Origin: a virus
Taxonomy: Duplodnaviria > Caudoviricetes
Length of the DNA: 61,630 nucleotides
Virus record (IMG/VR): IMGVR_UViG_3300020186_000025
Location: 1-61,630 of that record
Reading direction: 5' to 3' (one strand)
The notes under the pieces are model-generated. The model was given only the letters and a program-made list of their open reading frames with translations, was not told where the DNA came from and did not search any database. Below are positions 193 through 61,513 of the stretch, piece after piece. Position 1 is the stretch's first letter. Each line of letters opens with the position of its first letter. Made by a program: the position numbers and the translations under genes.

Positions 193-232
193 ACCTTGCT
201 TTTACACGATAATAAAAATAAGTCGGCATATT

Positions 233-274
233 GAAAAATAGTTGTTTACATGTGCATAAGCCAACTGCTATAGA
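233..274 (+). promoter_or_regulatory. Strong early sigma70-type promoter
   Basis: A-tract GAAAAATAGTTG, then TTTACA (245-250), and GCTATAGA at -10; near-copy at 61070-61109. Confidence 0.7.
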
Positions 275-690
275 AGGTCATGGCGCAAGGGCAAGTAACC
301 TGGCACCAAGGGCCACCGCCCCTAGGGGCGGCACATAGGTCCAACGGCTAGTAGGCCGGGTTCGGGTAAGGCACAAGCTGTATCCGGCAAAGTGTAGCAC
401 GGTGGCTCTTGGTCCGCTTGCACGCCCGGTCTGGTTTCTAGCGTAACACCGCGCCAATGGGCGCTGTCCGCCAGTAAGCCGCCTCGCAAGGGCCGTAGTA
501 ACGCTTACCAGGCCACAGCAAGTCCTGGGTTGGCGCGGGTAGCAATCACCAGCAAAGTCCCTTTCTATCTTCTACCCTCCACCGCCATAGGTCTAGCCTA
601 TGGCGGTCGGTTGCCTGCCCTATAGGGCTTATACTTAAAGCCCCATAGGGCAGGCAATCATGTCTGCCCAACCCTGTAAAGGAAACTATA
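275..690 (+). ncRNA. Highly structured ~400-nt early leader or candidate ncRNA
   Basis: No credible ORF; several stems (CCGCCCCTAGGGGCGG; ACCGCCATAGG/CCTATGGCGGT 581-607; TTGCCTGCCCTAT/ATAGGGCAGGCAA 611-657). Confidence 0.4.
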
Positions 691-692
691 CT

Positions 693-1238
693 ATGGCAAA
701 CTCCAACGCAACGAACCGCTTCGCCACTCGCAAGGGCAAGGTCGCATCCGCCGCCACCGAGGTGGTCTCCGAGATCGTGCCCGAGGTCATCGTGCCCGAG
801 GTCATCGTGCCCGAGGTCATCGTGCCCGAGGTCATCGTGCCCGAGGTCATCGTGCCCGAGGTCATCCCGCCGATGGCGGGTCCGTCGGCCGCCGAAGCCG
901 AAGCTGCACTGTTCCAGCAACGCCAGGCTCTGACCATCAAGGCATGTCGTGGCTTCACCCAGAAGGCCAAGCCTCAGCGCAAGATGTTGCGCCGGATCGC
1001 CAAGATGGGCGTCCACCCCGGAATGGGTCTGGGGATCAAGCGGTGGCACCTCTACCGGGTCGGCATGACCATGCAGGAGGCCAAGACCACGCCGGGCCTG
1101 TGCTACCTGGACCTGACCTTCTGGGAGAAGAACAAGCTGATCGTGATGCGCGACTGCACCGACGAGGAATACGCCGCCGAGCTCTCGTCCTGGGAGGCGT
1201 CCAAGCCCAAGGAAGTCGCGGTGGTCGCCGCCGCATAG
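693..1238 (+). CDS. First early protein with IVPEV x6 repeat; putative DNA-binding domain paralogous to 27141..27929
   Basis: RBS AAAGGAAA before ATG 693; KRW..Y..GMT...D..F motif shared with the 27.1-27.9 kb protein. Confidence 0.8.
   Translation: MANSNATNRFATRKGKVASAATEVVSEIVPEVIVPEVIVPEVIVPEVIVPEVIVPEVIPPMAGPSAAEAEAALFQQRQALTIKACRGFTQKAKPQRKMLRRIAKMGVHPGMGLGIKRWHLYRVGMTMQEAKTTPGLCYLDLTFWEKNKLIVMRDCTDEEYAAELSSWEASKPKEVAVVAAA
774..866 (+). repeat. 15-bp tandem repeat ATCGTGCCCGAGGTC x6 (IVPEV)
   Basis: Six exact in-frame copies. Confidence 0.95.
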
Positions 1239-1880: not shown

Positions 1881-1955
1881 GGACCGGGTGAAAGCCCGGT
1901 CCTTCTCCCTTGTAATGCCGCCAATGGTGACGGCATTATTTAGGAGAATGAAATG
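1881..1955 (+). repeat. Intergenic double-hairpin plus RBS cassette, copy 3
   Basis: Near-identical to copy 2 with a few substitutions. Confidence 0.9.
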
Positions 1956-2318: not shown

Positions 2319-2948
2319 TCATTCTTCTTGGTCTTCGTGATCTCTCACCTCGGTTGCCTCGCCTTCGATTGTCTCGCCGTCGGTGTAGCGGCTTTCCCAT
2401 TCGTCGATTGACTTTACCTCGGCAGGAGCGATCAGAACTCCACCAGAAACTTTCATCTCCACTTCTCTCTTGTCTCGGTATCCGGCTTCCACCCGACGCG
2501 CTTCCATCTGGATGAGTGGAATCGGGTAAATGGTCTCTTCGGTGAGCAGCTTTCCCGTGCGATCGAAAGTCTGCTTGATAGAGCCATTGAATGCGAGATT
2601 CTGGATATGCTGCACCATCTTATCACGATAAGTCTCTTCACATTCGGTGCAGGCTTCTGCGAATTCCGTATTCTTCGAGATCACTCTTTTAATCGCCGAA
2701 GAACTGACGCCGATCGCAGCGGCTGCTTTCCGGATCATTCCATGTTTCTCGTATTCATCCAAGAACTCGTTGTAGAGATCGGGAGTGAATGTTCCTTGTG
2801 ACGACACAATCTTCACGACTGTGGTTCCATCGAGGAGTTTGATCTCTTTAGCGTAGAATCGGCCCTGTTTGACTCCGTTCGTGACTTCGGCTCGGGTTGG
2901 TGAGCGCTTGGGAGATTGGAGATAATGGGAATCGTTGTCAGCGTCCAT
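2319..2948 (-). CDS. terS: Terminase small subunit
   Basis: HTH IRKAAAAIGVSSSAI, then F.EA...E...D......AF.G and Y.....L...R....YRD pattern typical of terS; AGGA RBS before ATG 2948. Confidence 0.7.
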   Translation of the reverse strand: MDADNDSHYLQSPKRSPTRAEVTNGVKQGRFYAKEIKLLDGTTVVKIVSSQGTFTPDLYNEFLDEYEKHGMIRKAAAAIGVSSSAIKRVISKNTEFAEACTECEETYRDKMVQHIQNLAFNGSIKQTFDRTGKLLTEETIYPIPLIQMEARRVEAGYRDKREVEMKVSGGVLIAPAEVKSIDEWESRYTDGETIEGEATEVRDHEDQEE

Positions 2949-3039
2949 TTTGAGAATCCTGTGTATGTAAAGAGAATGGGATCGCAGATCACCCGTATAA
3001 CTATAACCCAAGCGAGATCGCCTGACAATCGCAGATTTC

Positions 3040-5721: not shown

Positions 5722-5749
5722 CTTGGTGTCCTCCATAACAGGCACTTAC

Positions 5750-5778
5750 AGGGTAGCATCCACAGGTGCAAATGACAA
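5750..5778 (-). promoter_or_regulatory. Conserved phage promoter TTGTCA-N17-TACCCT
   Basis: TTGTCATTTGC core repeated at several intergenic sites with exact 17-bp spacing. Confidence 0.8.
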
Positions 5779-5788
5779 CCCCCTAAAT

Positions 5789-6049
5789 TCACATCTCTTT
5801 CCAGCCTTCATTTGACCAGCGCCACGCTCCACAATCTTCAGTCTCCCTGTAGATGTAGAAGTCGATCATCAACTCGTTCTCTTCTGGACACACGAGGATG
5901 TCTGCCGTGAATGTTTCGAACGTGACGCTCCGAATGATCGATTCCAGCGGTGCATCTCCGTAGAGATAATAATCTCGCTCAACCATCTGGCGAAACTTTC
6001 CGCTCGCAATATCCGCGAGCAGTTCGGTGAGGGTGATTGTTGGTTTCAT
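5789..6049 (-). CDS. Hypothetical protein
   Basis: TAGGAG RBS after a promoter. Confidence 0.75.
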   Translation of the reverse strand: MKPTITLTELLADIASGKFRQMVERDYYLYGDAPLESIIRSVTFETFTADILVCPEENELMIDFYIYRETEDCGAWRWSNEGWKEM

Positions 6050-6070
6050 GTTTGCACTCCTAAGCTGCCA

Positions 6071-6313
6071 TTACAGGGTAACAGCCTGCGAGGCAAATGA
6101 CAACCCCTTAATTTCACTCTCTTTCCGGGTCAATCTGCGTTCATGAATAACGCGACCTTGCTCGATAAAGCTGATAACGGATTCAAGTTTCAAACCATAA
6201 TATTCTGCCATGAATTCGCGAGTCAGAAACTCATTCACCCAAGACAAATAGAATCGCCGCAAATGAGCAGGGTCACTGAGTGCCAAGGCTTGTAGATCAA
6301 TTTGGTAGGTCAT
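6071..6313 (-). CDS. Hypothetical phage protein (WVNEFLT..MAEYYGL motif)
   Basis: AAGGAG RBS; motif recurrent in phage early proteins. Confidence 0.7.
   Translation of the reverse strand: MTYQIDLQALALSDPAHLRRFYLSWVNEFLTREFMAEYYGLKLESVISFIEQGRVIHERRLTRKESEIKGLSFASQAVTL
6075..6103 (-). promoter_or_regulatory. Conserved phage promoter TTGTCA-N17-TACCCT
   Basis: Same motif family, embedded in the end of the upstream ORF. Confidence 0.8.
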
Positions 6314-6795: not shown

Positions 6796-6824
6796 TCTTT
6801 ATCCTAACATTTAGCTGCCCTTAT

Positions 6825-6853
6825 AGGGTAACAGCTTGGCAGGCAAATGACAA
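6825..6853 (-). promoter_or_regulatory. Conserved phage promoter TTGTCA-N17-TACCCT
   Basis: Same motif family. Confidence 0.8.
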
Positions 6854-6864
6854 CTACAAAATAT

Positions 6865-7173
6865 CTAAGGTTTGACATAATGCGGATTGGCGACGAAGAA
6901 CTTCTTTGCTCGAGCCTTAGCATCGGCCAGAGTCGGAGAGGTTTCTACGAGTTTGACCAGTTTCATCTCGCCGTCTTGGAAGATGTCCACTTTTATAGTG
7001 ATCGGCGAATGATTTCCGGACTTCGCGTTGGCCGGAACGTAGTCATCTTCGCACTCAAGAAGAATTCGGTTCTTCTCGTTGACGATTCCCACCGGCCAAT
7101 TACGTCTGTGAAAAGACCTGTAGAGACCGGTTGAAGCGGGCGAGACTTCCCACTTTATTTTGATCTTATTCAT
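6865..7173 (-). CDS. Hypothetical protein
   Basis: ATGA overlap, AGGA RBS. Confidence 0.7.
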   Translation of the reverse strand: MNKIKIKWEVSPASTGLYRSFHRRNWPVGIVNEKNRILLECEDDYVPANAKSGNHSPITIKVDIFQDGEMKLVKLVETSPTLADAKARAKKFFVANPHYVKP

Positions 7174-11852: not shown

Positions 11853-11881
11853 AGCCTAGCACCCTTGGGTGCAAATGACAA
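11853..11881 (-). promoter_or_regulatory. Conserved phage promoter TTGTCA-N17-TAGGCT
   Basis: Same motif family. Confidence 0.8.
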
Positions 11882-21627: not shown

Positions 21628-22129
21628 TGATTATCTCCTTCATGAATTTATAGGCTCGCACAGTCATCGCTTCTTTGGCTTCCTTCGAAAACCAGAGTTC
21701 AACTCGGCGTTGCATCTTTTTCATGTTGCGATTTCCAAGGCTCTCTTGATCCAAGATCCAGAGATAGAATTCACATATGTCGAGGCTACCGAGCCAACGC
21801 TGGTCTTCTCTCGAGAGCGTTTCCCAGAAATCTGTTCCTTTAAGAATCCTGTCCGATGCGTCGCTATATGCTTTCTTGTCAAGGACAACGAAAGCTGGAC
21901 GAGGTGTGTCGCCCAGAAGACGTTCTGGAAGATCATGGGCAATGATAGCCCAAAGGAGAGCGGCAGGAGCATCTGGATGAAGAACTCTCAGAAGACACAA
22001 CATGCCGAAAGAGTGTTGACCGACGTCATACTCACCGATGATCTTCTGCGCGTGGACGCGGCGAACCGCCGCGCCCTCTCGTGCAAATTTCACCCGAGCA
22101 ACGTCCCCTTTGAGGACGTAATCCATCAT
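21572..22129 (-). CDS. HD-domain 5'-deoxynucleotidase-like phosphohydrolase
   Basis: V.R.H......V..HS, HDLPE...GD.P.P. Confidence 0.8.
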   Translation of the reverse strand: MMDYVLKGDVARVKFAREGAAVRRVHAQKIIGEYDVGQHSFGMLCLLRVLHPDAPAALLWAIIAHDLPERLLGDTPRPAFVVLDKKAYSDASDRILKGTDFWETLSREDQRWLGSLDICEFYLWILDQESLGNRNMKKMQRRVELWFSKEAKEAMTVRAYKFMKEIINGTSSNPDYWDPINELGE

Positions 22130-23193
22130 GCCCGACGATCCAGCCATTCGATGCAGGCTTTCCGCCAATCCAACGCGGCACAACCGCGAAGGTGTTTCTT
22201 CGCTTCTTCGACCCGCTGACGTTTCGAGCCCTCGTCTGTCTTCCAGGCGAACCATGCCTGCCAGATGGGACACACGACCTTGCGGAAGAACTTGTCCTGA
22301 AAGCCGGTAGCAGGGCCGACGTCCATGAACATTTGCAATTCGCGAATCCAAGCACCAATTTCGCTGTTCACCATCTGGAACGGTTCAACCGGATCTTGCC
22401 CTTTGATCTGAATGTAGGGATTGTCGAAAGGAAGAGGATCGCGGTCGGTGAACCCTGCCAGTTCACGAACAGGGTCCAACGTCTTCAGATAGGAATGAAA
22501 GTTGTTGGAAATCTGCCAGTAGCGACCGACGGGAACTCCGATCCATGCCGCCATGAACTCTTGGAGCATGGAGAAGTGGACAGCATTCGCGCCATAGGTT
22601 CCCCAGACCATGTCGTTGGAACGGTTCGTGACCGACATGTCCAATGACCCGTGGACGCTGATCGAAAACATGATCGTCGTGTTACAGGGAATGTCTTTCC
22701 CCTGACGACCGAGGTCATCTTCGGCCGACCACATGCTCACAACGGCGCGACGTTCATCGGGGTTTTCCCGAAGCATTCCCGCAACGCATTCCAGCTGATT
22801 GAACGGGACATAGGCTTCGCCATGAGGGTTCTGGTCATTATCAGTGAATTGCTGTCTCACAAAATGATTCACCCACCGATAACCGTAGGCTCCGTGGAAC
22901 GTTTCACCATCATCACTGAACTGGCTGATGTTGGAAGAAAACTGGCTGATCCAAGCGACGTCATTGCGACCAGCGATCATCCACAAGCCTTCCATGAAGT
23001 GGAAGAAAGGATTGCAGTCACGCTCAGGATGGAACATGACCCGCTCAAGAGGTTTCAGGTAGAGCGTGGTCACAGGACCGTCGATCAGTTTGACGTCGCC
23101 AGCGCGGGACTGACGATCGAATCCTTCCTTAAGGATCATCGCAACTCCCTTGGGCAACGCTTCGTGAACGTTTCTTGCTTCGATAACGTGCAT
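22126..23193 (-). CDS. Thymidylate-synthase-fold dUMP hydroxymethylase
   Basis: YG.R, RRAV, DIPCN, RSND..WG.YGAN (Asn indicates dUMP specificity; Asp is expected for dCMP), NFH.Y; C-terminal extension. Confidence 0.85.
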   Translation of the reverse strand: MHVIEARNVHEALPKGVAMILKEGFDRQSRAGDVKLIDGPVTTLYLKPLERVMFHPERDCNPFFHFMEGLWMIAGRNDVAWISQFSSNISQFSDDGETFHGAYGYRWVNHFVRQQFTDNDQNPHGEAYVPFNQLECVAGMLRENPDERRAVVSMWSAEDDLGRQGKDIPCNTTIMFSISVHGSLDMSVTNRSNDMVWGTYGANAVHFSMLQEFMAAWIGVPVGRYWQISNNFHSYLKTLDPVRELAGFTDRDPLPFDNPYIQIKGQDPVEPFQMVNSEIGAWIRELQMFMDVGPATGFQDKFFRKVVCPIWQAWFAWKTDEGSKRQRVEEAKKHLRGCAALDWRKACIEWLDRRA

Positions 23194-23202
23194 CGTATTT
23201 CC

Positions 23203-24468
23203 TCACAAACCGAAATGATTGAACATGATTTCCTCGGACTTTTTCTCGAGGGCAGGGACCTCTTCGTAAGGCAGAGGTTGCTCACCGATATCGTCGGTAG
23301 CGATATCGATAATTCGTTTGGCGATAACGTCAGCGTCGAAACACTGAACGAGTTCGCGGACTTCTTGACGCATACTGCTCACATCTGTAGAATCAGAACT
23401 CGCGTGATGCACCATCTCTGCGTAGGTCAGATCGTCTGCATCCATCGGGATGGACACATAATGAACATCTGGCAGGAACAAAGAGTTTCCAATGCCGAGA
23501 GGACGACCGACAGGGATAGCACCATTGATCGCAGCCTCGACGAAGACACGACCATAGAACCCGCCGCGAGGACCAAGACGAGTCGACCAAGAAGGATCGA
23601 CAAGAACCCGCGCCGATTGCAGAAGAAGGTCGACCTGATCACGCTCGATGTAATCGTGATGGACCATGCCGTTGTTTTCGGCCGCTTCCCAGATACGCTC
23701 GCCATCTGCATGAAAATACTTGTCTTTGCATTTGTTTGCAGAAGTCATATACTGATATTCGATACCCTTTCCGAAGATATCCCTGAACTCCATGTCTTCC
23801 TTCGGCGGCATATGACGGACCGCACGGATCAGGTCATCGACGTGCTTGAGACCTTTGAAAGTCTGGAGGCTGACGAAACCTTTGCGACGATCAGCCCAAG
23901 AAGGGACTTCCCGGTTGACATCGCGGAACGGATTGAGGACATGGAACCTCGGTGTCCTGATGAACGAGGAGCCGCCGATCGCCGAATGGTGGACACACAG
24001 AACAGCATGAAGCCTGTCCTGAATTTCCAGGACATATGGATAGCGATCGCAGGCACCACCGTCGTGAACGAAGGCCATCTGGACAGGGTGCTTGAGATCG
24101 TAAAGATCGCGCCATTCCCAGTTGCCTTCGTTCTCAGCATTGGTCGATGGAACCGGAATCGTCCAGAGGATGATGTCATATTCTTCCAGCCACTTCTTCG
24201 CTTGGGCCAGCATCTTCCCGCCCTGATAGGGAACCTTCTTCGCTTTGGTGAAGACCCAACCGATTTTCTGGTTATAGAGAAGTCCGGACTCAGACCTCGA
24301 GAAGTCCCCTGTCCGAGGATTTCCATCTTTCTGGTCTTTGTCGCTGTAGACAAGTTGAAGCAGATCGACATCGTGGCCTTGCCTTTTGAGGCCATAGATC
24401 AGGTCCTCAGTGTGATTGATGATCCCACCGAGGTCCATGATCTTGTAAAGGGCGACAGCGATTTTCAT
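23203..24468 (-). CDS. GT-B fold (GT4-like) glycosyltransferase
   Basis: GGI..H...L...L...GHDV; K.LK.VD.LI.A; VDPSW...YGRVFVEA...GA.PV. Confidence 0.8.
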   Translation of the reverse strand: MKIAVALYKIMDLGGIINHTEDLIYGLKRQGHDVDLLQLVYSDKDQKDGNPRTGDFSRSESGLLYNQKIGWVFTKAKKVPYQGGKMLAQAKKWLEEYDIILWTIPVPSTNAENEGNWEWRDLYDLKHPVQMAFVHDGGACDRYPYVLEIQDRLHAVLCVHHSAIGGSSFIRTPRFHVLNPFRDVNREVPSWADRRKGFVSLQTFKGLKHVDDLIRAVRHMPPKEDMEFRDIFGKGIEYQYMTSANKCKDKYFHADGERIWEAAENNGMVHHDYIERDQVDLLLQSARVLVDPSWSTRLGPRGGFYGRVFVEAAINGAIPVGRPLGIGNSLFLPDVHYVSIPMDADDLTYAEMVHHASSDSTDVSSMRQEVRELVQCFDADVIAKRIIDIATDDIGEQPLPYEEVPALEKKSEEIMFNHFGL

Positions 24469-25469
24469 GCTTTGACTTCCCATGAGCGAAGAACAGGCGC
24501 TGTCAGCGGTCCCTTCTTCAAGGTTTCAGCGATCAGGACCAAGTCTGCTTCACTCGGTTCTGGGAGTTCCTCTTTACCAAGGTGATCCGGCAAAATGCCT
24601 GGACGCATTGACAAAGTGTCACAACCATCACAGGCACCGAAGTCACGCTGTCCATGATAAAGTTTTCGACGAAGAGCATACATTTCCTCGGAGTGCCAAA
24701 TTTCATCAAGACCTTGTTCATGAATAGATCCAAGAGGAAAGACTCCTCTCCAATCATTGCAGCAGGTTGCTACTTGTCCATTCCACCGAACATTGAATTC
24801 TCTGAAAGGTTTCGCACACCTTCTTCCCTCAGCTTTATCGTTTTTGGGAGCCCCCGATCCGGCATGATTGCTGAGTTTGCTGTGAGTGCCACTGGTGCTG
24901 ACATCGATTGGCCTGATCCAGATAAGCCGCTTCTTCGTATTGCGCTTATGAGGATTGCCGACACCCCCACAAGAAGGATAATCGTAAAACGTAACGCTGC
25001 CATCAAACAATTTGTCGCCGGTTTCGAGAAAACCACAACCTTGCTCTTGCTTGATTTTCTCCAGGATCTTCGGCACCAGCTTAATCGTCTGGTATTCGTC
25101 CAAGCCCAGAGTAGAAAGGCCAGCGCCGAACATTTCTTGGACGGTCTTTGTGGAAGTATCGCCAATGATTCCTCCACCATTGCTTTCGAGCAAGATGTAG
25201 GCTTTCGGCAGGTGCCGTCGGAAGATTGCGATCAATTCCAGGAAGTCAGGATTCATCGTCGGCTCGCCGTGCATAGCGATTTCAACTCTACTATTCCAAC
25301 CAAGAGAAGCCATTTGCTTTGAAACAGATTCCGCAGTTTCGCGAGTCATCAGCTTATAGTTATTTTCTTTTCCCCTGATAGCGTTCAGACCACAAAATCC
25401 ACAACGAAGATTGCAGCCCTCTGCAAATTCTATGTGAATGACGTATGGATTTCCTTGGCGATAGTTCAT
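24465..25469 (-). CDS. Radical SAM enzyme with SPASM/twitch domain
   Basis: CNLRCGFC, GEP, SNG; C.KPF....W.G.V..CC.D....LG.I....L.EIW...C..C. Confidence 0.9.
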   Translation of the reverse strand: MNYRQGNPYVIHIEFAEGCNLRCGFCGLNAIRGKENNYKLMTRETAESVSKQMASLGWNSRVEIAMHGEPTMNPDFLELIAIFRRHLPKAYILLESNGGGIIGDTSTKTVQEMFGAGLSTLGLDEYQTIKLVPKILEKIKQEQGCGFLETGDKLFDGSVTFYDYPSCGGVGNPHKRNTKKRLIWIRPIDVSTSGTHSKLSNHAGSGAPKNDKAEGRRCAKPFREFNVRWNGQVATCCNDWRGVFPLGSIHEQGLDEIWHSEEMYALRRKLYHGQRDFGACDGCDTLSMRPGILPDHLGKEELPEPSEADLVLIAETLKKGPLTAPVLRSWEVKA

Positions 25470-26185
25470 GATTCTTTCCTTCTGTATCCTGCGATGGTTT
25501 GCCAAAGACCGCTGTTGTCTAAAGTTGGGGCGATGAATGATTCCCAACCGTTGTCAAGAAAATAAGCATCCAAATGTCTTGCGTTCTCAAGTCTCCCAAC
25601 TGTAAGATGTATTTCAAAAACTACCTCTTTCAATTTCGGAAAATCAGCGATCGCTTCATAGATTTCGTATTCCCCTCCCTCACAATCAATTTTCGCTACA
25701 TCTGGATTCGTTTCTTCCAAAACCTTTTGAATAGAAACAGCCGATACTGTTGAGATTGTTCTTCCTCTTGTCTTTCTGGTTGTATAATTCCCAGAGTTTT
25801 TCCCAGAAGTAGAAATATAGAAATCAACAAACGGTTGTTCACCGTTAATCACAGCCGATTGACAAAGAACAATTTCTTCTTCAGGGCAATTCAATTGAAA
25901 CATTTCACAGTTGAAGGGCTCAGGCTCGAAAGCATAAACTTTCTTCGCATTATTGTCCAAAGCCCATCTTGAAAATAAACCGATATTTCCACCGATGTCA
26001 AGAACCACATTATCTTTTACAGATAATTTTCCGTATGAACGATAAATCTCTTTTGCGATATAGAGATCATAAGTGTCTTTTCTGCAAAAGATTGGAGTTG
26101 AAAATCCTTTTACTGATTTGACTTCAATTTCTCTTTCTTCGACAGTGCCATTCACTATAATTTTGGCGGTTTTTGATTCAGTCAT
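25466..26185 (-). CDS. FkbM-family SAM-dependent methyltransferase
   Basis: VLDIGGNIG, AFEP.P.N, KIDCEG.E, E.H. Confidence 0.88.
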   Translation of the reverse strand: MTESKTAKIIVNGTVEEREIEVKSVKGFSTPIFCRKDTYDLYIAKEIYRSYGKLSVKDNVVLDIGGNIGLFSRWALDNNAKKVYAFEPEPFNCEMFQLNCPEEEIVLCQSAVINGEQPFVDFYISTSGKNSGNYTTRKTRGRTISTVSAVSIQKVLEETNPDVAKIDCEGGEYEIYEAIADFPKLKEVVFEIHLTVGRLENARHLDAYFLDNGWESFIAPTLDNSGLWQTIAGYRRKES

Positions 26186-26232
26186 AGTTGACTCCTATCT
26201 CATGTTTGATCTTTATTTCAGAAAGCGTTTGG

Positions 26233-27141
26233 TTATCTTCCTTTATACCGACTTCTTGGTCTTCCTTGTCCCAGACGAGTGCGCTCATACTTGTCGAACT
26301 CACAAAGCTGGAATTGAATGTCTGTCGGGAATAGCTTTCCATATTCCTTAGGCCAGAACTCTCCTTGGGCTTCGTAAAGTTGCATTATGATCTCCATCGG
26401 CTTGCCCTTGCCAATGTTGACCGTCGTTGGAGAGTCATGCCCAAGAAGGCGAGCAGCACCACGAACACCACCGGGACCGACGGGAGTCCAGCGATCATAG
26501 TCTTCGGGATAGGTGAACGTGCGGTTGTCCACATGTTGGATTTCACCACCCCAGAAACTTGTCATCATTGTGTCCAGGAGAACTTCTTTGGTCATGAAAC
26601 CAGAGCCGCCGAAACCTTTGATCGTGGACATTGCACCAGCCAAATCTCGCCAGCTTCTTGTCTTTTGAACTTGCTCCAAAAGAGCAGGCACAGCGTCATA
26701 AAGATCGGAAAGAAAGTGACGGCAAACGACTTGCGGCTTGGGAGCACTCATACCCTGATTCGTGACGACATAAGCCCCTGTGAAAACACGCAGACCATCC
26801 GCGAGGCGATCTGTTGCACAGTCTTCGATCTCCAACAAATCGAAGCTTTCGTAGTCATACCAACCGACTGCCTGAGCGAATTCGAATGTTCCGAAGTATC
26901 GATAGACTGCACAGTTGATCAAGATGGAACGAGGGTCATCATCGAAATGATCGTAGTAGAACGTCGAGCGCAACATATCCGATGTCCAATCGTGATGTCT
27001 ACGAACGTTCGTGAATTTGTATTCTTGGAGGATGGGATCATCAGTCCAAGGGCGAGGCTGGCCAGCCTCCTTGCGGAGACGGACCAGTTCCCGCTTCTTC
27101 ATGTAGTCGAAGAAGCGGGGAGTTGCGATCGGTAGGTCCAT
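26233..27141 (-). CDS. aGPT-Pplase clade 1 / 5-hmdU DNA kinase helical-domain family protein
   Basis: R..G..PWT.DPIL..YKFTNV.R..D, FTGAY, G.G..F...E, GPG..RG, DIQ..LCEFDKY.R. Confidence 0.85.
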   Translation of the reverse strand: MDLPIATPRFFDYMKKRELVRLRKEAGQPRPWTDDPILQEYKFTNVRRHHDWTSDMLRSTFYYDHFDDDPRSILINCAVYRYFGTFEFAQAVGWYDYESFDLLEIEDCATDRLADGLRVFTGAYVVTNQGMSAPKPQVVCRHFLSDLYDAVPALLEQVQKTRSWRDLAGAMSTIKGFGGSGFMTKEVLLDTMMTSFWGGEIQHVDNRTFTYPEDYDRWTPVGPGGVRGAARLLGHDSPTTVNIGKGKPMEIIMQLYEAQGEFWPKEYGKLFPTDIQFQLCEFDKYERTRLGQGRPRSRYKGR

Positions 27142-27929
27142 CAGGACGTTGCGGTCCCGGTGGCGGTAGCACCCGCGTTCGCAGCAGCAGCGTCTTTGGC
27201 AGCTTTCTCGGAGTCGCGCTTGGCTTTCGCTTCGACACGCTCGGCTTCCTTGGACGTCTTCTCGGCGTCGCGCTTGGCCTTGGCGGCATCACGCTCGGCG
27301 TCTTTGGTGACCTTCGTCGCAGCGCGTTCGGCATCCTTGCGCTTCTTCTCGACCGTCGGGTCTTCCTGGCCATTGCGGGCGAACCATGCAGACAGACCGG
27401 TCTCGAACTCTTCGGTCGTCGGCTCGATCAGCTTCATATAGCCGTGTTGAACGAAAAAAGAAACGTCGATTTGCGTCATGTCTTGGCCCTCGATCGTGTC
27501 CAGGATCGTCATGCCATTCTTGTAATTGCCCCAGCGTTTGCTTCCACGATCGGGCATCTCGACCAGCTTCTGCAGACGACGGAACATATTCCGGGTCGGG
27601 CGCTTGACGGTCTTCGGCTGAGCGGCCTTGACTTCGACCGGCTCTTTCGGCTCGGCGGGCGGCTTCTCAGCTTTCGGAGGTTTCGGAGTCTTGACGGCCC
27701 CGATCGCTTCGCCAGCGGCCTGATTTTCTTCTGCACTCATCTGCTCATTCCACTTGTTGAGCGCCTTCCAGGTCGCTTCGACGGCCTGATCATGATCGCG
27801 GAACGATTTGATCGAGGAGACGCCCATGTTGGTCGCGACGAGGTTTCGCAATTTCAGCAGATCGACGTCTTCTATCCCTTTGAGGGTGGCCTCGTCATAA
27901 TCTGCGCCGCTGAACGTGATCTTGGTCAT
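27141..27929 (-). CDS. Putative DNA-binding protein with K/A/E-rich histone-like tail; first gene of the modification operon
   Basis: AAAGGA RBS; central domain paralogous to 693..1238; KRDAE/KAKRD repeats. Confidence 0.75.
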   Translation of the reverse strand: MTKITFSGADYDEATLKGIEDVDLLKLRNLVATNMGVSSIKSFRDHDQAVEATWKALNKWNEQMSAEENQAAGEAIGAVKTPKPPKAEKPPAEPKEPVEVKAAQPKTVKRPTRNMFRRLQKLVEMPDRGSKRWGNYKNGMTILDTIEGQDMTQIDVSFFVQHGYMKLIEPTTEEFETGLSAWFARNGQEDPTVEKKRKDAERAATKVTKDAERDAAKAKRDAEKTSKEAERVEAKAKRDSEKAAKDAAAANAGATATGTATS

Positions 27930-28031
27930 TGTGTTTCCTTTCATTGGTCAATACCTCGGCCTTGCCTTAGCCCTTTACTTATGGCATGTCGGCAAGGCCG
28001 GAGCAACAGTTATTTTTCACGCGCCTTGGAA

Positions 28032-29831
28032 TTATTCAGCACAAGGTCCAGTTCTTTGACCTGTTGTTGAATCGAACCCGCAGGACTCGCCTTCCTTCGT
28101 ATCTTTGACTTCGGCAACGTCAGCAGAACTGATGACATCCTCGTAGTTGCCGTTCGGGCGATACGTCGTGCATCCCTTTGCTCCGCCTTCATAAGCAGAG
28201 ATATAGAGATTCTTGAACTTCTCGTAGGGGTAGTTGGTTGGCACGTTGCATGTCTTGCTGACAGCACTATCAATGTGAATCTGCGACGTGCAGAGAACTT
28301 TGATATGTTCTTCAGCAAGGACATCAACCATCCGGCGACCTTTGACGCCGAGAACGCTGGAACCATAATCAGGAACTCTGACCTTGATCTTGCCTTCTGG
28401 CATGATCACGTTCCGGTCCTGTTCATAACCGAAAACAGGCTCGATACCGCTGGACACATTGTCAGCTGTGAAGCTGATTGTTCCGGTCGGCGCGATGCTC
28501 GTCAGGTGAGAGTTACGAATGCCGTATCTCCTGATCAAGTCGCGAACGTCGCTGTCCAGAGATTTGATGAACTGTCCGGACAAATATAGTGTCTCATCGT
28601 AAAGGGGAAAGCTGCCCTTTTCTTTCGCCAGCATGGCCGAGGCAATGTAGCAGTTGCGAGTGATGAAGCGCAAGATATCGTCTTCAACATGAAGGAAGTT
28701 TGGAGATCCATAAGAGAAACCCATAGCCTCGATGCAGTTCGCAAGACCAGTCACACCGAGTCCCATTCTTCGCTTCGCTTGGGCTTCTTTCCGTTGCTCA
28801 GGAAGAGGGTAGCGAGCCCGATCGACAATGTTGTCCATCGCTCGGACCACATGCGGAATGTCAGCGGCGAGAAGTGACCACTGGAATTCCCATTTTTTGG
28901 AAGTCAAGTTCCGATCCAGATATTTCACAAGGTTGAACGAGCCCAAGAGACAGGCACCATAGGGAGGGAGCGGCTGTTCGCCACACGGATTCGTTGCGGC
29001 GATCGTCTCACAGTAATAGAGATTGTTCAGCCGGTTGATCGTGTCAATGAACAGAACACCCGGCTCGGCCCAATCGTAAGTTCCTCGCATGATCATTTCC
29101 CACAGAGCGTGGGGATCGACCTCGCGGTAAACTTCGCCGCCAAATCGCAGAGGGAACGCCCTGCCGGTTTGGACACACTCCATCAGTTCGTCGGTGATGG
29201 CGATCGACATATTGAAACCGCGAAGTGGACGATACTCATACGGAATGTGAGCCACGCCCTGTTTCGCACGAATGAAGATTTCAACATCGGGATGGTCTGC
29301 CCGTATGACCAGCATCTGCGCCCCGCGACGGTTGCCAGCGGACGACGTAGCACCACAGACAGCGTCATAGATCGGAGCGAAGGCCATTGGCCCATCAGTA
29401 ACGGATTGAACTCCGCGGATTAGGTCGCCTCTCGGACGCAGAGTGCTGATGTCGTAACCGACGCCGCCACCTTGGCGCATAGTGATCGCAGCAGCTTTCG
29501 CAACGTCCATGATCGACAGCGACGGATGCTCGCCGATCGACAACTCCGAAAGTTCCTGGAGAGTCGGGCCATCAGTGAAACTGTCGTGCATAGTCGGCAT
29601 CACGAAACAGTTGTAGGGGGTGATGTTCTTCAGAGAACCCATCGCTGCCTGAACACGGCCAGCAGAAAGATATCTCATTTGCAGCCTCGCATCACGATAG
29701 GCCATATAGTGTTCGTGATTGTCTTGAAGCGCAGAACTTTCGCGATTGCAGGCTTCCCGATAAGTCTCACCCTTTCCTCGATATTTCTCTGCATGGACCA
29801 TATCACTTGCGGGGACGCTGGGACCTATCAT
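28032..29831 (-). CDS. nrdJ: Class II (adenosylcobalamin) ribonucleotide reductase
   Basis: NCFV, GGGVG, RRGAQM, FN.S, EPG..F.D, TNPCGEQPL, C.LGS.N, IAPTGTIS; no beta subunit. Confidence 0.9.
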   Translation of the reverse strand: MIGPSVPASDMVHAEKYRGKGETYREACNRESSALQDNHEHYMAYRDARLQMRYLSAGRVQAAMGSLKNITPYNCFVMPTMHDSFTDGPTLQELSELSIGEHPSLSIMDVAKAAAITMRQGGGVGYDISTLRPRGDLIRGVQSVTDGPMAFAPIYDAVCGATSSAGNRRGAQMLVIRADHPDVEIFIRAKQGVAHIPYEYRPLRGFNMSIAITDELMECVQTGRAFPLRFGGEVYREVDPHALWEMIMRGTYDWAEPGVLFIDTINRLNNLYYCETIAATNPCGEQPLPPYGACLLGSFNLVKYLDRNLTSKKWEFQWSLLAADIPHVVRAMDNIVDRARYPLPEQRKEAQAKRRMGLGVTGLANCIEAMGFSYGSPNFLHVEDDILRFITRNCYIASAMLAKEKGSFPLYDETLYLSGQFIKSLDSDVRDLIRRYGIRNSHLTSIAPTGTISFTADNVSSGIEPVFGYEQDRNVIMPEGKIKVRVPDYGSSVLGVKGRRMVDVLAEEHIKVLCTSQIHIDSAVSKTCNVPTNYPYEKFKNLYISAYEGGAKGCTTYRPNGNYEDVISSADVAEVKDTKEGESCGFDSTTGQRTGPCAE

Positions 29832-33090: not shown

Positions 33091-33219
33091 ATTTTCTCCA
33101 TTCGTTGGCCTCCGGTGGGCCGACGGGTTTCTTAAACAGTCACCGCCTCTGGATATGCTCCAGCACTGTCTCAACACTGTAAAGAGTGGCCCCTATGGCT
33201 AAAAACCACCCGCCTTAGT

Positions 33220-33248
33220 ATGCTAAGGCTGGGCGCGGCAAATGACAA
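33220..33248 (-). promoter_or_regulatory. Conserved phage promoter TTGTCA-N17-TAGCAT
   Basis: Same motif family. Confidence 0.75.
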
Positions 33249-33260
33249 GCAATTTGTTTC

Positions 33261-44217: not shown

Positions 44218-47200
44218 ATGTTCCTTCTACCAGAACTGATCATACGAGCGGCCCGAGCGGCAAGCTGACTTTGACTTGCTTGGAACGATTGTGCATCGGG
44301 AGTGGTTACGTTGAAGATCACAGTCGTTCCTGCACTACCACGACCGCCGCCGGGCTCTTGACCACGAGGAGTGATTTCAACATGCTCACCATCTTTCAAA
44401 CGAAGCGGAACAAGACGATTGTCATGACCTGTCAGCCCGCCGAAGCCTGAACTCGGTCCCACTTGGAAGCTACCGCCAGCCGCTGCTCCTGGGATAGCAG
44501 CCGCTCCAATCCCGAATATTCTGTCAACGATGCCACCGAGGAAACCTGAGAAGACTTCAAAGAGACCTTTCTTTTTGCTACCTCCCCCATCAGTTCCTGC
44601 TTCACCACCAAACAACTGTTGAAAGGCTTGAGAGACAACAAGCTGAATTATCATTTTGTTGATATTGCGGATCAAAGAGCCGAAATCTGCTGTTCCATCA
44701 ACAACCAGATCAGCGATCGCAGACGACATACCATCAAAGGCAGTCGTAATGATATTCTCCATTTGCGAGGCTGCATCAGAAGTCTGCTCGATGATTTTGA
44801 GGAACCCTCTCTCGAAACCTGCTTGCATCGTAGTTTGGCTTTCAAGGAACCGAATACGAGCAGAGAGCACAGACTGAGAGAACTGATCTTGATTAACAGT
44901 TCCTTCTTGCAGCAGTTCATTGAGAACTTCCATTTCCATGGTATAAGTTCTCAATGGCTCCAGAAGAGAATCTATAATCTCCAGTTTTCTTTCCATAGCT
45001 TTGGAGATTTCTTCAACAGTCTTAGCAGCGCCACCAGAGCCACCAGTTCCACTTCCAGAAGAGAGAGCATCGAATTCTGCATTTACCATAGCAAGTCTCT
45101 GCTGATATTGAGCAGTGACGTCTGCAATTCTCGAAGTCGCGTCTTCACCGGTCTGCAGAGTTGCGATCAATTCGTTGTAACGACGAGTTTCAGTTTCAAT
45201 AGCACGAGCACGATCGTCAAGAGCACTGAGAGCACTGTCATCAGTGTATTCCTTGAAAGCCTCGTTCGCATTTCTTTGAGCAGAAGCAGTTCCATCGATC
45301 TCTGAACGAGCGAGAGCATAGGTCTCTTTCAAGCGACCTATCTGTGTTGCATAGTTGTCGATGGAGATGTTTTTAGCGTTGAGTAGTTGATCAAGTCCAC
45401 CAACTCCGCTTTGGAAAGCACTCTGGGCTTCCAGCAATTGATCAGCAACATCTTGAGCAGCAGCAAGTTCAGGAACAAATCCTGCCAAAGTTCTGAGAGC
45501 ACTGATTGTCGCCATTGCAGCACCACCGAGACCACGAATACTCGATGCAGCAATATTCGCACTTCCAGAAAGCCCAAGGAGAGCCCGATCTGCACTCCCA
45601 GCAACTCCTCCGAGAACTGCAAGGATCGCTCTCAAACGTTCTGTATCTTTTCCAGCTTCATCAGAAGACCTGGACAATTCAATCGCTTCAAGGGCAATGT
45701 CGCCGAGGACTCCGCCAGTTGTTGAAGCAATCTGCAACAAGGCCAGACGAAGTTGATTCCCATTCGTTGTTCCATCTTGGAGACCAGCAATCAAAATTAG
45801 AAGTTGAGCAGCACTAGCTGCTCCAGCAGAGCCAGTCGACTGGAGACGATCAGCAAGTCCGGAGAGAACATCACTGAGAGATTGAGCCCTCTGTTCAGTG
45901 TTCAGCAGTTGAACACCAAGCAAGGCAGATACATCGGAGATAGAAAGACCAGTAGTCTGTTCGTTCAATTCTTCAAATTTTTCACCGAGACGTGCGAAGG
46001 CATCCGTCATAATCTTCACAGTAGCATCAACTTCTGCACTGGTCTGTGAGAAGCGATTCTCGTTTGCAAGACGATCAAATTGATCGTTGATCGCTTTCAG
46101 CCTGTCAATATAAACATTTGAAGTCCCTGTAAACAGATCGACTGCCGCATTGTTCTTTGTCAACTCAGCAGTGACATCAGCAAAGGCTTCTTCTTCACGT
46201 CGAAGTGCTTCTTCACGACGAGTGAGACCAGCCTCGAGGTCCGATCTGTTGATATAAGAATCATAAGCAGAAGTGGCTTTCTCAATAGCCTCAGTCGTTC
46301 CATCGATCACAGCTATTGCAGCTATCAATCGCTGACCGAGAGTTTGCGTGGCATCTGAGAAAGTAACTTGTGATATCTTGCCTTCTGTCAATTGGGTGTT
46401 CAAGATTGCAAGACCAGCTTTGTAGATGGCGGTCACTTTTGCGATATCTTCTTGAACCTTAGCTGCTCTTTCAAATTCTGGAATGAAGTTGCTTATCGCT
46501 GCAAGAGCATCTCCAAATGTATCTATGTCTTTCACAGCCGCCGCGATTGAGCCACCTGCCTCACCAGCAGAGATACCGAGACGTTCGAGAGCGGCAGACG
46601 CTTCTGCCTCTGTTCCAGTGATAACTGTCAATACGTCTTGAAGACGATTCAAAGACTCTACAGTCGATCCAGTATCTCTTGATAACTTTATCAAGTTAGT
46701 TATCAGCGAAAGTGTGCCTGGGTCATTTCCGACCGAGATATCGGAAAGTTCATCTCTGAATTCTTCGAGATTTAAGGTTCCATCTTTAAGATTTTCAAAG
46801 ACTTCGTCAAGGAAAGCAGTTAGTGCTCTTGGGTCAATTCCGACCGAGATATCGGAAAGTCCATCTCTGAATTCTTCGAGATTTAAGGTTCCATCTTTAA
46901 GCTTTACTGAGGCTTCGTCAAGGAAAGCAGTTAGTGCGCTTGGGTCAATTCCGACCGAGATATCGGAAAGTCCATCTCTGAATTCTTCGAGATTTAAGGT
47001 TCCATCTTTAAGCTTTACTGAGGCTTCGTCAAGGAAAGCAGTTATAGGACTCTCTCCTGAATACTCTTTGAGAATTACAGAAACAGAGAATAGTCCTCTG
47101 CCGAAGCTTCGCATAGAGTCTGCTGCAATATCTGCCTGCTCAGTGATTTGAGTAAGAAGTTCGATCTCAGTAAACCCGAGAAGACCTTCTGTGACATCTT

Positions 47201-58253: not shown

Positions 58254-58376
58254 ACGAGTCTCCATGGAATCGACGCAGTAGATTCCCCGCGTTTGAAATG
58301 CAGCATAGCCCCATCCGAGTAATCTGGCAAGGACTTTTATTCTCGTTACTTATGGAGGAATCTACTGAGTCGATTC

Positions 58377-59903
58377 CTAGTGCATTCCAGTCGTGGTCCC
58401 TTGACCAACCTTCATTCCAACGAAACGGACACGATATCTCGTTTCATCAGCAATGTGATCTTCTGTCCTTGTATCCACGTCATCAGGATCATCTTCATCT
58501 CTCGGAAGAACAGGAACAGTTCGTATCCATTGCTCACAGTTGTCAAAGATGAAGAGTCCTGGTTTCTCTCTTGGGCCATAGATAGGTTTCTCTTCAGCAT
58601 TCAAGCCCAAAATGGTGGGATGAGCGTTCCTGATCATCTGACGCATCTGCACCCAACCTGTATGACGCGATCCCGGACGCTTGTCAGCTTCTCCCCAATA
58701 GATTCCTTTGTAACGGACTCCATCTTCGAGTCTAACCTTGGTCTTCATGTCAACAGCAATGCAGTTTCCGTTCTCGGCAGCAAAAATCTGCGAGTCTGCA
58801 ACTCCACCCTTCACGCGGCAATACGATCCATCGCCACGAATACGATATCCCCACTTGATCTCTCTCTCGACCATCCCACGAGCGATGTCAGTCGCCAGCA
58901 TCTGCTTCCCTTCGTTGGACTTCCCTGTCCAACCATACCATTCGTGAATACGAAACAGATCTCCACGAACCGTAGATCGCCACTGACCGTTCTTCAACAG
59001 CACATCTTCTCCATTGCTCCTTGCCCACCAGCCAACAGAAAATGGACGTGATGAACCCCAGTCGAAACTCCGATCCATGGACCATCGATCTGGGATAACG
59101 AACGGACGAAGGACATTGAAAGCCGGGTCCCAGACATCGTCGAACATTCCACCAGCGACAATGTCCCACGACCCTTCGAGCCATGCTTTCCGCTCAGCAT
59201 CGTTGCGAGCAGCCGCTGCAATCTTGTTCACATAGTCAGGATCCTCTTTGAGAAGAACCAGGTTCTCTTCCAGACGGGAGAAGATTGACAAACGAGGTGG
59301 CTCAGGAATACCGCGTTCGTCCTTCAACTCCTTACGAACTTTCATGTTCATTGTAGAAGGCAGAAATCTCATTTTGACCCAGTTGTGACCGGGACCATAT
59401 GGGTTCGTCGTCGCACGAACCATCCGTGGCATACCAGGAGTTGAACTCCGACAGCACGAGAACATTCTCTTGTATCCAGTGTCGTCAGGCCAGTTGCAAA
59501 GTTCTTCCCAACCGATCCAGGGATATTCGTGACCGTGATAGTTCCAATAGTCGTCGTCCCGCTTGAATTGACGCAACAGAAGTTCTTCGCCAGAGAGCCA
59601 GACCCACTTATGCTCGCTTCCATTGAACTTGGCTCCAGGCCAAATCTGCGGAAACCACTTCTTTGTCTTGGTAATCACATCTGAAAGCTGTTTGTATGTC
59701 TGCCGGAACAAGACGCCCTTCCAACCGGCTCCAAATCCCTTACCGACGTGCATCCCGAACGACATCAGAAGGGAATCTGTCTTGCCACCGCCACGCGATC
59801 CTTGAAAGAGGACCTCAAAGATCGGAGTAGAAGAAAGAAACGCTTCCTGCGACCCTTTCTGGGGCTTCCAAATCACATTTTCTGGATATTGATCTAGAGG
59901 CAT
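58377..59903 (-). CDS. terL: Terminase large subunit
   Basis: GSRGGGKT Walker A, GWEEL Walker B, TTNPYG.GH.WVK, DWGS..P, EDH.ADE.RY. Confidence 0.93.
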   Translation of the reverse strand: MPLDQYPENVIWKPQKGSQEAFLSSTPIFEVLFQGSRGGGKTDSLLMSFGMHVGKGFGAGWKGVLFRQTYKQLSDVITKTKKWFPQIWPGAKFNGSEHKWVWLSGEELLLRQFKRDDDYWNYHGHEYPWIGWEELCNWPDDTGYKRMFSCCRSSTPGMPRMVRATTNPYGPGHNWVKMRFLPSTMNMKVRKELKDERGIPEPPRLSIFSRLEENLVLLKEDPDYVNKIAAAARNDAERKAWLEGSWDIVAGGMFDDVWDPAFNVLRPFVIPDRWSMDRSFDWGSSRPFSVGWWARSNGEDVLLKNGQWRSTVRGDLFRIHEWYGWTGKSNEGKQMLATDIARGMVEREIKWGYRIRGDGSYCRVKGGVADSQIFAAENGNCIAVDMKTKVRLEDGVRYKGIYWGEADKRPGSRHTGWVQMRQMIRNAHPTILGLNAEEKPIYGPREKPGLFIFDNCEQWIRTVPVLPRDEDDPDDVDTRTEDHIADETRYRVRFVGMKVGQGTTTGMH

Positions 59904-60125: not shown

Positions 60126-60296
60126 GTTATTGATCTCTTTGTGGAGGAATCTACTGCGTCGATTCCTTTCAGATTCACTTTTACTTTCATTTGAGCCTTC
60201 TTGCAAGTATGAAATTTTCTCGTCAGGCAGGAGGTATCTACTTCGTCGATACCTTGCAAGCACGAATTTTCTCTTCAGGCAGGTGGAAAGCTGGTA

Positions 60297-60575: not shown

Positions 60576-60843
60576 TTTCTGTTCCTTTTTGAGGGAGGTA
60601 TCTACTTCGTCGACACCTGTAGTTTACCATCTAAACATTCCAGGAGCAATGGGCGAGTTTCCTGGGTCTGCTTGGGCTCCACAGTTGTCTGGAGTCTATC
60701 TCCTCGATTTCATCCTCGATTTCATCCTCGATTCTTATTCTTATGTTTATGATTGCACCATTTTGATTGATTGAGGGCGAGGGAGAGCGGCACGGGACCA
60801 CTCCTAGGGAGCACTCTGCCTCAAGCCGTGCGTGGGGGCGGGT

Positions 60844-61034
60844 GAATAGGGATTAGGAATAGGGATTAGGAATAGGGATTAGGAATAGGGATTAGGAATA
60901 GGGATTAGGAATAGGGATTAGGAATAGGGATTAGGAATAGGGATTAGGAATAGGGATTAGGAATAGGGATTAGGAATAGGGATTAGGAATAGGGATTAGG
61001 AATAGGGATTAGGAATAGGGATTAGGAATAGGGA
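60844..61034. repeat. 13-bp tandem repeat GAATAGGGATTAG x~14.7
   Basis: Exact period of 13. Confidence 0.97.
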
Positions 61035-61069
61035 GCCACTGGCCACTGGCACTGGCAGGCTGGCAGGCA

Positions 61070-61109
61070 GAAAATAGTTGTTTACATATGCACAAGTTAG
61101 GTGTAGGCT
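61070..61109 (+). promoter_or_regulatory. Early promoter TTTACA-N17-TAGGCT
   Basis: GAAAATAGTTGTTTACAT-TGCA-AAG shared with the promoter at 233-274. Confidence 0.75.
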
Positions 61110-61146
61110 AACGGTAGGGCAATACCGCCCACATAGGTTAATAAAC

Positions 61147-61446: not shown

Positions 61447-61497
61447 GCAATAGGCAATAGGCCACACCTGGGCTAGCCCAGGTGTGGCCTATTGCCT
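61426..61497. repeat. GCAATAG x5 running into a 46-bp perfect palindrome (61452-61497)
   Basis: AGGCAATAGGCCACACCTGGGCT|AGCCCAGGTGTGGCCTATTGCCT. Confidence 0.95.
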
Positions 61498-61513
61498 TGC
61501 CATGCTAGCCCAG

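Follow-up and report, generated by a model that had tools for sequence, protein, structure and literature searches.

In thymidine-hypermodifying siphoviruses, among them M6/YuA, Pam3 and many uncultured relatives, a non-enzymatic gene without an assigned function is maintained between the ribonucleotide reductase (RNR) gene and the DNA modification genes. It stands directly after the RNR gene in PAC4, YuA, CN1, Pam3 and RHph_TM26, and its products, represented by YuA gp08, carry a DUF3489 domain (E 2.2e-9, above the cut-off), to which CN1 adds one extra winged helix. According to the accessible part of Putzeys et al. (bioRxiv 10.1101/2023.10.13.562163), nine YuA promoters share a conserved non-bacterial motif and are silent without infection. 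Here, we analyzed the whole virus record IMGVR_UViG_3300020186_000025 (61,630 bases, estimated completeness 97%; hereafter the window) of an uncultured siphovirus-like phage from microbial-mat metagenomes, and in particular two of its genes, A and B, that share a domain. Judged by homology and gene order, B is this lineage's version of the conserved post-RNR gene of YuA/M6-like siphoviruses, with a new domain swapped in for DUF3489, and A is a minimal copy of the same domain, consisting of a variable repeat arm plus the domain, lodged between the terminase genes terS and terL. The two genes and their parts are as follows.

693..1238, plus strand: gene A, 181 amino acids from the ATG at 693; the open reading frame (ORF) is open from 660
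774..866, plus strand: IVPEV arm repeat of A, a perfect tandem repeat of 15 nucleotides (nt) x 6.2; its length and sequence differ among relatives
912..1205, plus strand: shared domain in A (profile match 936-1205)
27141..27929, minus strand: gene B, 262 amino acids, with an N-terminal domain (N-domain), a disordered linker, the shared domain and a long charged helix
27726..27929, minus strand: N-domain of B (residues ~1-68), a homologue of the N-terminal part of YuA gp08-type proteins
27345..27632, minus strand: shared domain in B, located by BLASTP, profile matches and the structure model
27156..27359, minus strand: C-terminal K/E/A/R-rich segment of B, predicted to be a single long helix (residues 191-258), with a 54-nt x 1.9 repeat inside

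A first-pass annotation of the window had proposed from manual alignment that A and B are paralogues. Both ORFs and the peptides quoted from them were as described, with likely starts at 693 for A (AAGGA 8-14 nt upstream; 181 amino acids in the database form) and at 27929 for B (AAAGGAAA upstream; 262 amino acids in the database form). Pairwise BLASTP aligned the two proteins over 82 amino acids with 30% identity (E 7e-11). Metagenomic relatives were collected at E<=0.001, yielding 18 sequences for B from 5,065 candidates and 18 for A from 151, and the comparison of these two families by hhalign gave a probability of 99.1% and an E-value of 1.2e-18 over 77 columns. A joint domain profile of 22 sequences matched exactly two places in the 61.6-kb record, namely A and B. 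Together, the BLASTP, profile-profile and family searches indicate that the proposed paralogy is real and that the domain, of ~85-95 amino acids, forms a small nameless family. On these sequence comparisons, A and B are ancient paralogues whose common domain was previously without a name.

Searching with the domain profile among 1.84 billion cluster representatives returned 120 clusters at E<=1e-3, 88 of them at E<=1e-10 and five at E<=1e-30. The family was confined to phages, and every member seen came from one phage lineage, so that its co-occurrence with modification genes is inseparable from shared descent. No cultured relative was found when A, B and the B region were compared with 50,697 phage records by megablast and tblastn. 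A had no match in Pfam (E<=1) and no usable match in PHROGs; for B, Pfam at E<=1 gave no helix-turn-helix (HTH) family and only a sub-threshold Borrelia_P83 match over the tail, and PHROGs at E<=0.1 gave no family. Likewise, ten longer family members carried no Pfam domain above the cut-off, and a sequence profile search of the PDB with the domain gave no match at E<=10.

The N-domain of B was present in 43 of 107 family sequences. A domain-only tree was built from the 86 sequences covering at least 80 of 98 columns, the 21 shorter ones being excluded, and its best split placed 79 of the 86 tips correctly (support 0.725). On one side, 34 of 41 tips in the B clade had the N-domain; of the remaining seven, five begin no more than 28 residues ahead of the domain, which suggests N-terminal truncation. 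On the other, none of the 45 tips in the A clade had it. Proteins of the B type thus start with the conserved N-domain and a linker, to which the domain and, in most cases, a charged C-terminal extension forming a long helix are added, and those of the A type consist of a variable arm followed by the domain at the C-terminus; in A itself, a short basic N-terminus and an acidic P/E/V repeat arm precede it. Among ten near-complete B-bearing records, an A-type copy was present in three and absent from seven, and one further contig of 36.8 kb carries both types.

The link of B to the YuA gp08 type is through the N-domain. A hidden Markov model (HMM) of this domain matched the 227-aa Yuavirus protein (phrog_7790; YuA gp08) at E ~2e-14 to 5e-16. 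The individual values were 1.5e-16 for CN1, 3.9e-16 for YuA gp08, 5.2e-16 for PAC4 and 1.7e-9 for Bhz59, and the counterparts of Rhizobium phage RHph_TM26 and Pam3 gave weaker matches. A counterpart is also present in a Bordetella phage (CN1) and a Stenotrophomonas phage (Bhz59). BLASTP of B against the PAC4 protein gave an E-value of 0.001 over residues 1-86.

The structure of the shared domain was modeled with AlphaFold2 (predicted local distance difference test, pLDDT, 83.7; predicted template modeling score, pTM, 0.71). The model contains helices (H) and strands (E) in the order H14-17, E19-22, H43-48, H54-62, E66-69 and H73-87, with a beta-alpha-alpha-alpha-beta-alpha core; a long HPG-K-G-x-R-I-K-R-W loop follows the short helix and strand, and two of the helices are HTH-like. 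In the VIA structural search the best match was the winged helix of PriA (6dgd; Z 4.3, root-mean-square deviation 2.7 over 58 residues), and the weak matches at Z 2.4-4.3 included many winged helices, DNA-binding and protein- or peptide-binding alike. Like the winged-helix/HTH domains of PriA, MarR (Z 2.4-2.7 for MarR-type matches), ScpB and TFE-alpha, the domain is predicted to have a three-helix core and a two-stranded sheet. Unlike them, it has a long conserved loop between the first element and the HTH, an acidic third helix and an extra C-terminal helix. Among the ten weakest or multi-stretch profile hits that were scanned, five were tandem-HTH proteins, one was a PAS kinase and four had no clear family; the tandem proteins (HTH_23/HTH_28/Terminase_5) match profile positions ~29-77 at E 4e-6 to 9e-4. 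As modeled, the domain is probably a divergent winged-helix-like module. Over 86 members, the first 37 profile columns, which form the arm, had an average charge of +7.4, and basic residues lie in this N-terminal arm and the loop instead of in a polar or basic recognition helix. Nucleic acid would most likely be contacted by the basic arm rather than by the third helix.

The full-length model of B had a pLDDT of 79.6; its N-domain was predicted as a beta hairpin and two long helices, and residues 69-99 as disordered. The first-pass annotation had described a basic histone-like tail. The K/E/A/R-rich composition of the tail and a net positive charge (~+5 over 67 residues) were found, but lysine and arginine are mixed with aspartate and glutamate, and the segment is neither strongly basic nor disordered, being predicted as one long helix (pLDDT 78-89). 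Its structural matches were coiled coils only (Z ~6.8) and uninformative. For the whole of B, Foldseek found no PDB entry at E<=0.001, and a wide VIA search was dominated by coiled coils that aligned with the long helix. In BFVD, a nameless family member (E 4.6e-5) and PhiJL001 Gp18 (E 0.029) were found, neither with a function. In the ESM Atlas, the whole protein matched nameless viral clusters only; the N-domain matched Rho_N/SAP-containing clusters at 0.75-0.78, below a useful score, and a HeH-like fold is a lead only.

The reading that we prefer, with a confidence a little short of even, is that B and A are DNA-associated regulators or adaptors built on the new winged-helix-like domain. 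The domain would attach the protein to nucleic acid via its basic arm, the winged-helix-like core serving as a scaffold. B would multimerise through the long helix and act on phage DNA, either as a regulator of its own promoter or operon or as an adaptor bringing a modification enzyme to the DNA, and A would bind the same kind of target.

Several results weigh against this reading. None of 48,161 chains reached Z>=5 in VIA, and the fold assignment is therefore weak; Foldseek with the domain model found no PDB entry at E<=0.001, the best E-value being 1.7. A fold search of the shared domain, named in the first-pass annotation as a check on its proposal, thus yielded a weak winged-helix likeness without a Foldseek match. 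The core (profile columns 38-90) averages -3.0 in charge, and the third helix, with the consensus (T/L)-x-x-(L/W)-D-V-x-F-(Y/W)-V, is acidic and hydrophobic with a conserved aspartate. Such an acidic helix and core are unusual for an HTH that reads DNA. Some of the weakest profile matches, such as the PAS kinase, are clearly unrelated. No homology of the domain to DUF3489 was detected, and such a relation was rejected: PF11994 (DUF3489) had no match in the whole record at E<=10, and hhalign of the 100-sequence domain family against nine DUF3489 domains gave a probability of 0.2% (E 0.29), with 0.4% for the reversed control. Finally, no form of B fused, for example, to an enzyme was found among 7,999 candidates scored, although this is weak evidence.

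Peptide- and protein-binding winged helices among the structural neighbors also speak against DNA association, and raise the alternative that the domain is a module resembling RiPP recognition elements (RREs) that recruits a host or phage protein, with another role for the basic arm. The acidic core, the neighboring RRE domains (8t19 Z 2.9, 6ec8 Z 3.0, 5ehk Z 2.7, 3h5a Z 2.4) and GATOR/SEA subunit winged helices (Z 3.8-4.0), and the presence of a radical SAM/SPASM gene in the operon of B in the window would fit such a module. However, all these Z values are low, the YuA-type counterparts carry ordinary DNA-type winged helices in their DUF3489 domains, and a SPASM homologue was found in only three B loci (L001, L002 and L009), so it is not a constant partner. 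We consider protein binding of this kind unlikely. The narrower idea of an RRE serving the radical SAM enzyme was rejected because the SPASM gene is limited to these three loci.

The features around B, all on the minus strand, are given below.

28032-29831, minus strand: RNR gene, directly before B
27977..28019, minus strand: promoter-like site upstream of B, with TGAAAAATA, TTGCTC, a 17-nt spacer and CATAAGT; the layout is kept in relatives
27957..28000, minus strand: 10-nt inverted repeat CGGCCTTGCC / GGCAAGGCCG enclosing the -10-like region; equivalents with other sequences occur in relatives
26233..27141, minus strand: aGPT-Pplase1-like gene (Pfam PF18723 HMUDK_hel, E 2.8e-33), its ATG overlapping the stop codon of B by 1 nt
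after B, minus strand, in order: the aGPT-Pplase1-like gene and the genes for an FkbM methyltransferase, a radical SAM/SPASM enzyme and a 426-aa protein
then, minus strand: a thymidylate-synthase-like gene, DNA polymerase A, primase-helicase, ligase, small ORFs and, last, terS

As the first-pass annotation had stated, TGAAAAATA-preceded promoter-like sequences stand ahead of both A and B. TGAAAAATA occurs exactly twice in the window, at 232-240 (plus strand) and 28011-28019 (minus strand), against an expected count of 0.35, and at least two copies arose in 4 of 100 shuffles. The longer motif AAATANNNKTTKMY had four matches against 0.26 expected, a number reached in none of 100 shuffles. Across the B loci, the upstream layout comprises an A-rich block, TTGC(T/C)(T/C), ~17 nt and a TAnnnT-like hexamer. 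By this layout, B is preceded by a conserved sigma70-like promoter, here called a promoter-like site. A perfect inverted repeat of at least 8 nt was found upstream of B in 17 of 21 regions, compared with 23 of 420 shuffles. In the B loci (L001-L025), these repeats have arms of 8-12 nt and loops of 24-42 nt and span the promoter-like core, the left arm lying at or next to the -35-like TTGC, with which it overlaps in most loci. From locus to locus, the arms have different sequences and covary. The repeat may form a hairpin, in RNA or in DNA, or serve as a split operator. A further intergenic motif, which ends in GCAAATGACAA and has a short palindrome ahead of it, occurs on the plus strand at 5738-5790, 6063-6115, 6813-6865, 11857-11881 and 33208-33260, and may be a regulatory site of a second type.

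The order RNR, B, Pplase1-like gene was compatible with all 25 B loci, all three genes being visible in 19. The stop codon of B overlaps the ATG of the Pplase1-like gene by 1 nt in 16 of 21 loci as well as in the window, and a gap of 2-10 nt separates them in the other five; this count covers 21 of the 25 loci, L019 and three truncated loci having been left out. The overlap or near-abutment persists down to ~35% identity of B and suggests translational coupling of the two genes. The earlier statement that B heads the modification genes is thus supported and sharpened. The closest cultured relatives of the PF18723 protein, those of Yuavirus PAC4 and cyanophage Pam3, are annotated as aGPT-Pplase1. 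The whole cluster (22126-27141, minus strand) comprises the aGPT-Pplase1-like, thymidylate-synthase-like, FkbM methyltransferase and radical SAM/SPASM genes and the 426-aa protein, which is without a family match. With tblastn, the window contained no homologue of the Yuavirus 5-hydroxymethyldeoxyuridine (5-hmdU) kinase, aGPT-Pplase2, pyridoxal phosphate (PLP) enzyme or SPL-like radical SAM enzyme, which points to a thymidine-hypermodification cluster of different make-up. It may make a different thymidine modification.

With this gene arrangement, B could be the DNA-targeting or activating partner of the aGPT-Pplase1-like enzyme, deciding where or whether post-replicative thymidine hypermodification takes place. 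That the two genes overlap or nearly abut in all 21 loci examined argues for such a partnership, for which an activator protein of a phage DNA-modifying enzyme, described in the accessible part of PMC13229309, is a precedent. A DUF3489 winged-helix protein also lies inside a 7-deazaguanine cluster, between QueD and QueC, in the Dinoroseobacter phages R5C (3629-4426 of L053) and R26L (3659-4270 of L057). On the other hand, in a single lineage the linkage may be inherited gene order, and in RHph_TM26, where the counterpart comes after RNR, the stretch shown has no annotated Pplase-type gene. The lack of fused forms mentioned above and the A-type copies, which are nowhere near modification genes, also count against it. 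Co-occurrence with modification operons, another check named beforehand, is seen for B within this one lineage. We regard this partnership as rather unlikely. A complex prediction of B with the Pplase1-like protein gave no verdict (score 0.14 against a mark of 0.32) and was not used either way, and a search for HMUDK_hel in five A-only contigs (fragments of 7-31 kb) was uninformative, as neither it nor its control gave a match. For the Pplase1-type protein gp55 of M6, the accessible part of PMC8989533 reports that it is dispensable for the first transfer step.

Gene A has a setting of its own, with the following features.

2319-3011, minus strand: terS, a 230-aa ORF (phrog_4044, E 1.1e-18)
232..274, plus strand: promoter-like site upstream of A, with TGAAAAATA, TTTACA, an 18-nt spacer and TATAGA (hexamers read from the sequence)
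320..570, plus strand: structured conserved 5' leader, ~250 nt non-coding, between the promoter-like site and A
1248-1322, 1593-1667 and 1881-1955, plus strand: three copies, 77-100% identical, of an element of 75 nt that contains a pair of GC-rich hairpins, a T-run and a ribosome-binding site

Contigs of relatives that span the record ends showed that the record is a circular permutation with its break inside repeats, and that across the junction terL is followed by a small ORF, ~1.4 kb without coding sequence, A and then terS. In the window, terS and terL are ~3.5 kb apart across this junction, with A, three opposite-strand small ORFs and a repeat region in between. All 17 distinct contigs with an A-type gene have it between terS and terL, both terminase genes being in range in 14. 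They are co-oriented with the terminase genes in 12 contigs, with the order terS, A, small ORF, terL, and inverted in five; the window is of the inverted type. Besides its inverted orientation, A has in this sub-lineage a promoter-like site to itself, a structured leader and hairpins that resemble terminators. The position might suggest that A is itself the small terminase subunit, but A had no PHROG or Pfam match, and the neighboring gene at 2319-3011 (minus strand) is terS.

The first-pass annotation had regarded A as the first early protein, deployed at entry, and had inferred a domain that reads or shields modified or not-yet-modified phage DNA, with A acting on entering DNA and B in replication. 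The paralogy, the linkage of B to modification genes and the similar promoter-like sites ahead of both genes agree with this. The putative reading helix, however, is acidic, and an A-type copy is missing from seven of the ten near-complete B-bearing genomes. Moreover, the place of A-type genes between terS and terL, co-oriented with both in 12 of 17 contigs, implies that deployment at entry is not a family property; an early role of A is unproven and is not a family trait either. We hold a reader or shield to be the least probable of the functions weighed here.

The motif upstream of A lies ~450 nt ahead of its ATG. A second copy of the promoter-like sequence was found at 61066-61096 (plus strand; 26 nt, 92% identical to 235-260) and is followed by ~400 nt of non-coding DNA; a third, looser copy with a 4-nt spacer at 61338-61352 (plus strand) is not significant alone, since at least one such match arose in 18 of 100 shuffles. 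The copies at 61066 and downstream suggest tandem promoters facing A. The leader is 76% identical to that of G001-type contigs (L062-L064 and L036), in which the A protein is only ~48% identical. Its predicted fold has 82 pairs, 20 with compensatory changes against 0-2 in slid controls, the structure having been derived from the same two distinct sequences that were used for counting the changes. No match to the leader was found in Rfam, and we consider it, from its conservation and folding, a candidate structured RNA of a class not assignable to an Rfam family. An 18-mer scan of viral contigs for extra copies returned eight stretches; five of them, in contigs without a known leader, share the 18-mer alone and were taken as chance matches. 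The first 75-nt element stands directly after A, and each copy directly precedes a small ORF downstream of A. The element, which also occurs three times in the close relative L026, may be a terminator, attenuator or processing site.

Both the window and L026 have, next to A, ~1.5 kb of non-coding sequence that contains several perfect tandem arrays. The six-fold IVPEV arm, correctly described in the first pass and encoded by the perfect 15-nt x 6.2 repeat, is one of many such arrays in the region, and the arrays differ between close relatives. The record ends themselves (60701-61630 and 1-200) consist of perfect tandem arrays, among them a 12-mer x2.8, a 7-mer x5.3, GCCT-rich 16-mers at 11-190, a 13-mer x14.7 at 60844-61034 and a 16-mer x6.4 at 61528-61630, and L026 has other arrays, with quite different units, at the same place. 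The stretch from terL to A is a hypervariable repeat region, which is probably why the assembly broke there. Short DNA contigs from other samples break at the repeat and diverge from the window just upstream of the domain of A.

Such a location could mean that A binds the repeat-rich non-coding region between terS and terL, as a pac/cos or terminal site, and takes part in packaging or at genome ends, B being an unrelated use of the domain. The position of A-type genes in 17 of 17 contigs and the tandem arrays beside A are what this would predict. Yet terS has an HTH-like segment of its own (read from the translation), distant relatives such as L071 have A without tandem arrays, and the array units are wholly different between close relatives, in which the domain is conserved. 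A packaging role is, in our view, very unlikely.

Elsewhere in the record, nearly all genes are on the minus strand. Their reading order begins as follows.

58377-59903, minus strand: terL, followed in reading order by the portal gene and then the structural genes
after the structural genes and before the RNR gene, minus strand: SNF2 helicase and RecD-like helicase

A 29-nt hairpin-like repeat (GGAGGAATCTACT...GATTCCT) is present in four copies around terL and the small ORFs upstream of it (58350-58378, 60139-60167, 60226-60254 and 60590-60618). We take an ORF of 1514 amino acids to be the tape-measure protein, judged by size and position; it contains a 111-nt x 3 tandem repeat with 95% matches (46711-47044, minus strand).

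A more far-reaching version, which we think quite improbable, would cast the domain as a subunit devoted to handling DNA in post-replicative thymidine hypermodification. B, produced in a fixed ratio to the Pplase1-like enzyme, would load or activate this enzyme on phage DNA and so set which thymidines are modified, and A, as the free copy, would employ the module close to the packaging region or a genome end; instead of this or in addition, such proteins may be the missing phage-encoded factor for YuA-type promoters. The gene between RNR and the modification genes is modular, with a conserved N-domain and an exchangeable small domain (DUF3489 or the new one) that has been duplicated into the packaging region. 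This may bear on the role of the Pplase1-type protein, on why only some thymidines are modified, and on the phage factor driving YuA-type promoters (bioRxiv 10.1101/2023.10.13.562163). If the proteins are ordinary repressors, the gain is only the name of a new HTH-like family.

Compared with known systems, the ParB-like activators of phage thymine dioxygenases (O'Toole et al. 2026, PMC13229309) offer a functional analogy only. In the accessible part of that source, they are small non-enzymatic proteins that are encoded with a DNA-modifying enzyme and needed on double-stranded DNA. B has no sequence or fold relation to them and accompanies another enzyme class. The YuA gp08-type proteins are closer. 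They differ from B in that their C-terminal domain is DUF3489 and not the new domain, that they are without the long charged helix, and that the HMM of phrog_7790 does not match B. Furthermore, a second copy of the domain between the terminase genes was not seen in YuA-type phages (73 records, 75 places). The N-domain of B is homologous to that of the YuA gp08/M6/PAC4 family (Mesyanzhinovviridae), Pam3 gp38 and RHph_TM26 EVB34_069/070, and B shares with the YuA gp08 type the position after RNR and before the thymidine-modification genes and the succession of N-domain, P/A/K-rich linker, basic arm and small helical domain. As with the promoter-like site ahead of B, gp08 is immediately preceded by a repeat for which the GenBank record of YuA gives the annotation 'putative sigma70 promoter requiring phage-encoded cofactor'.

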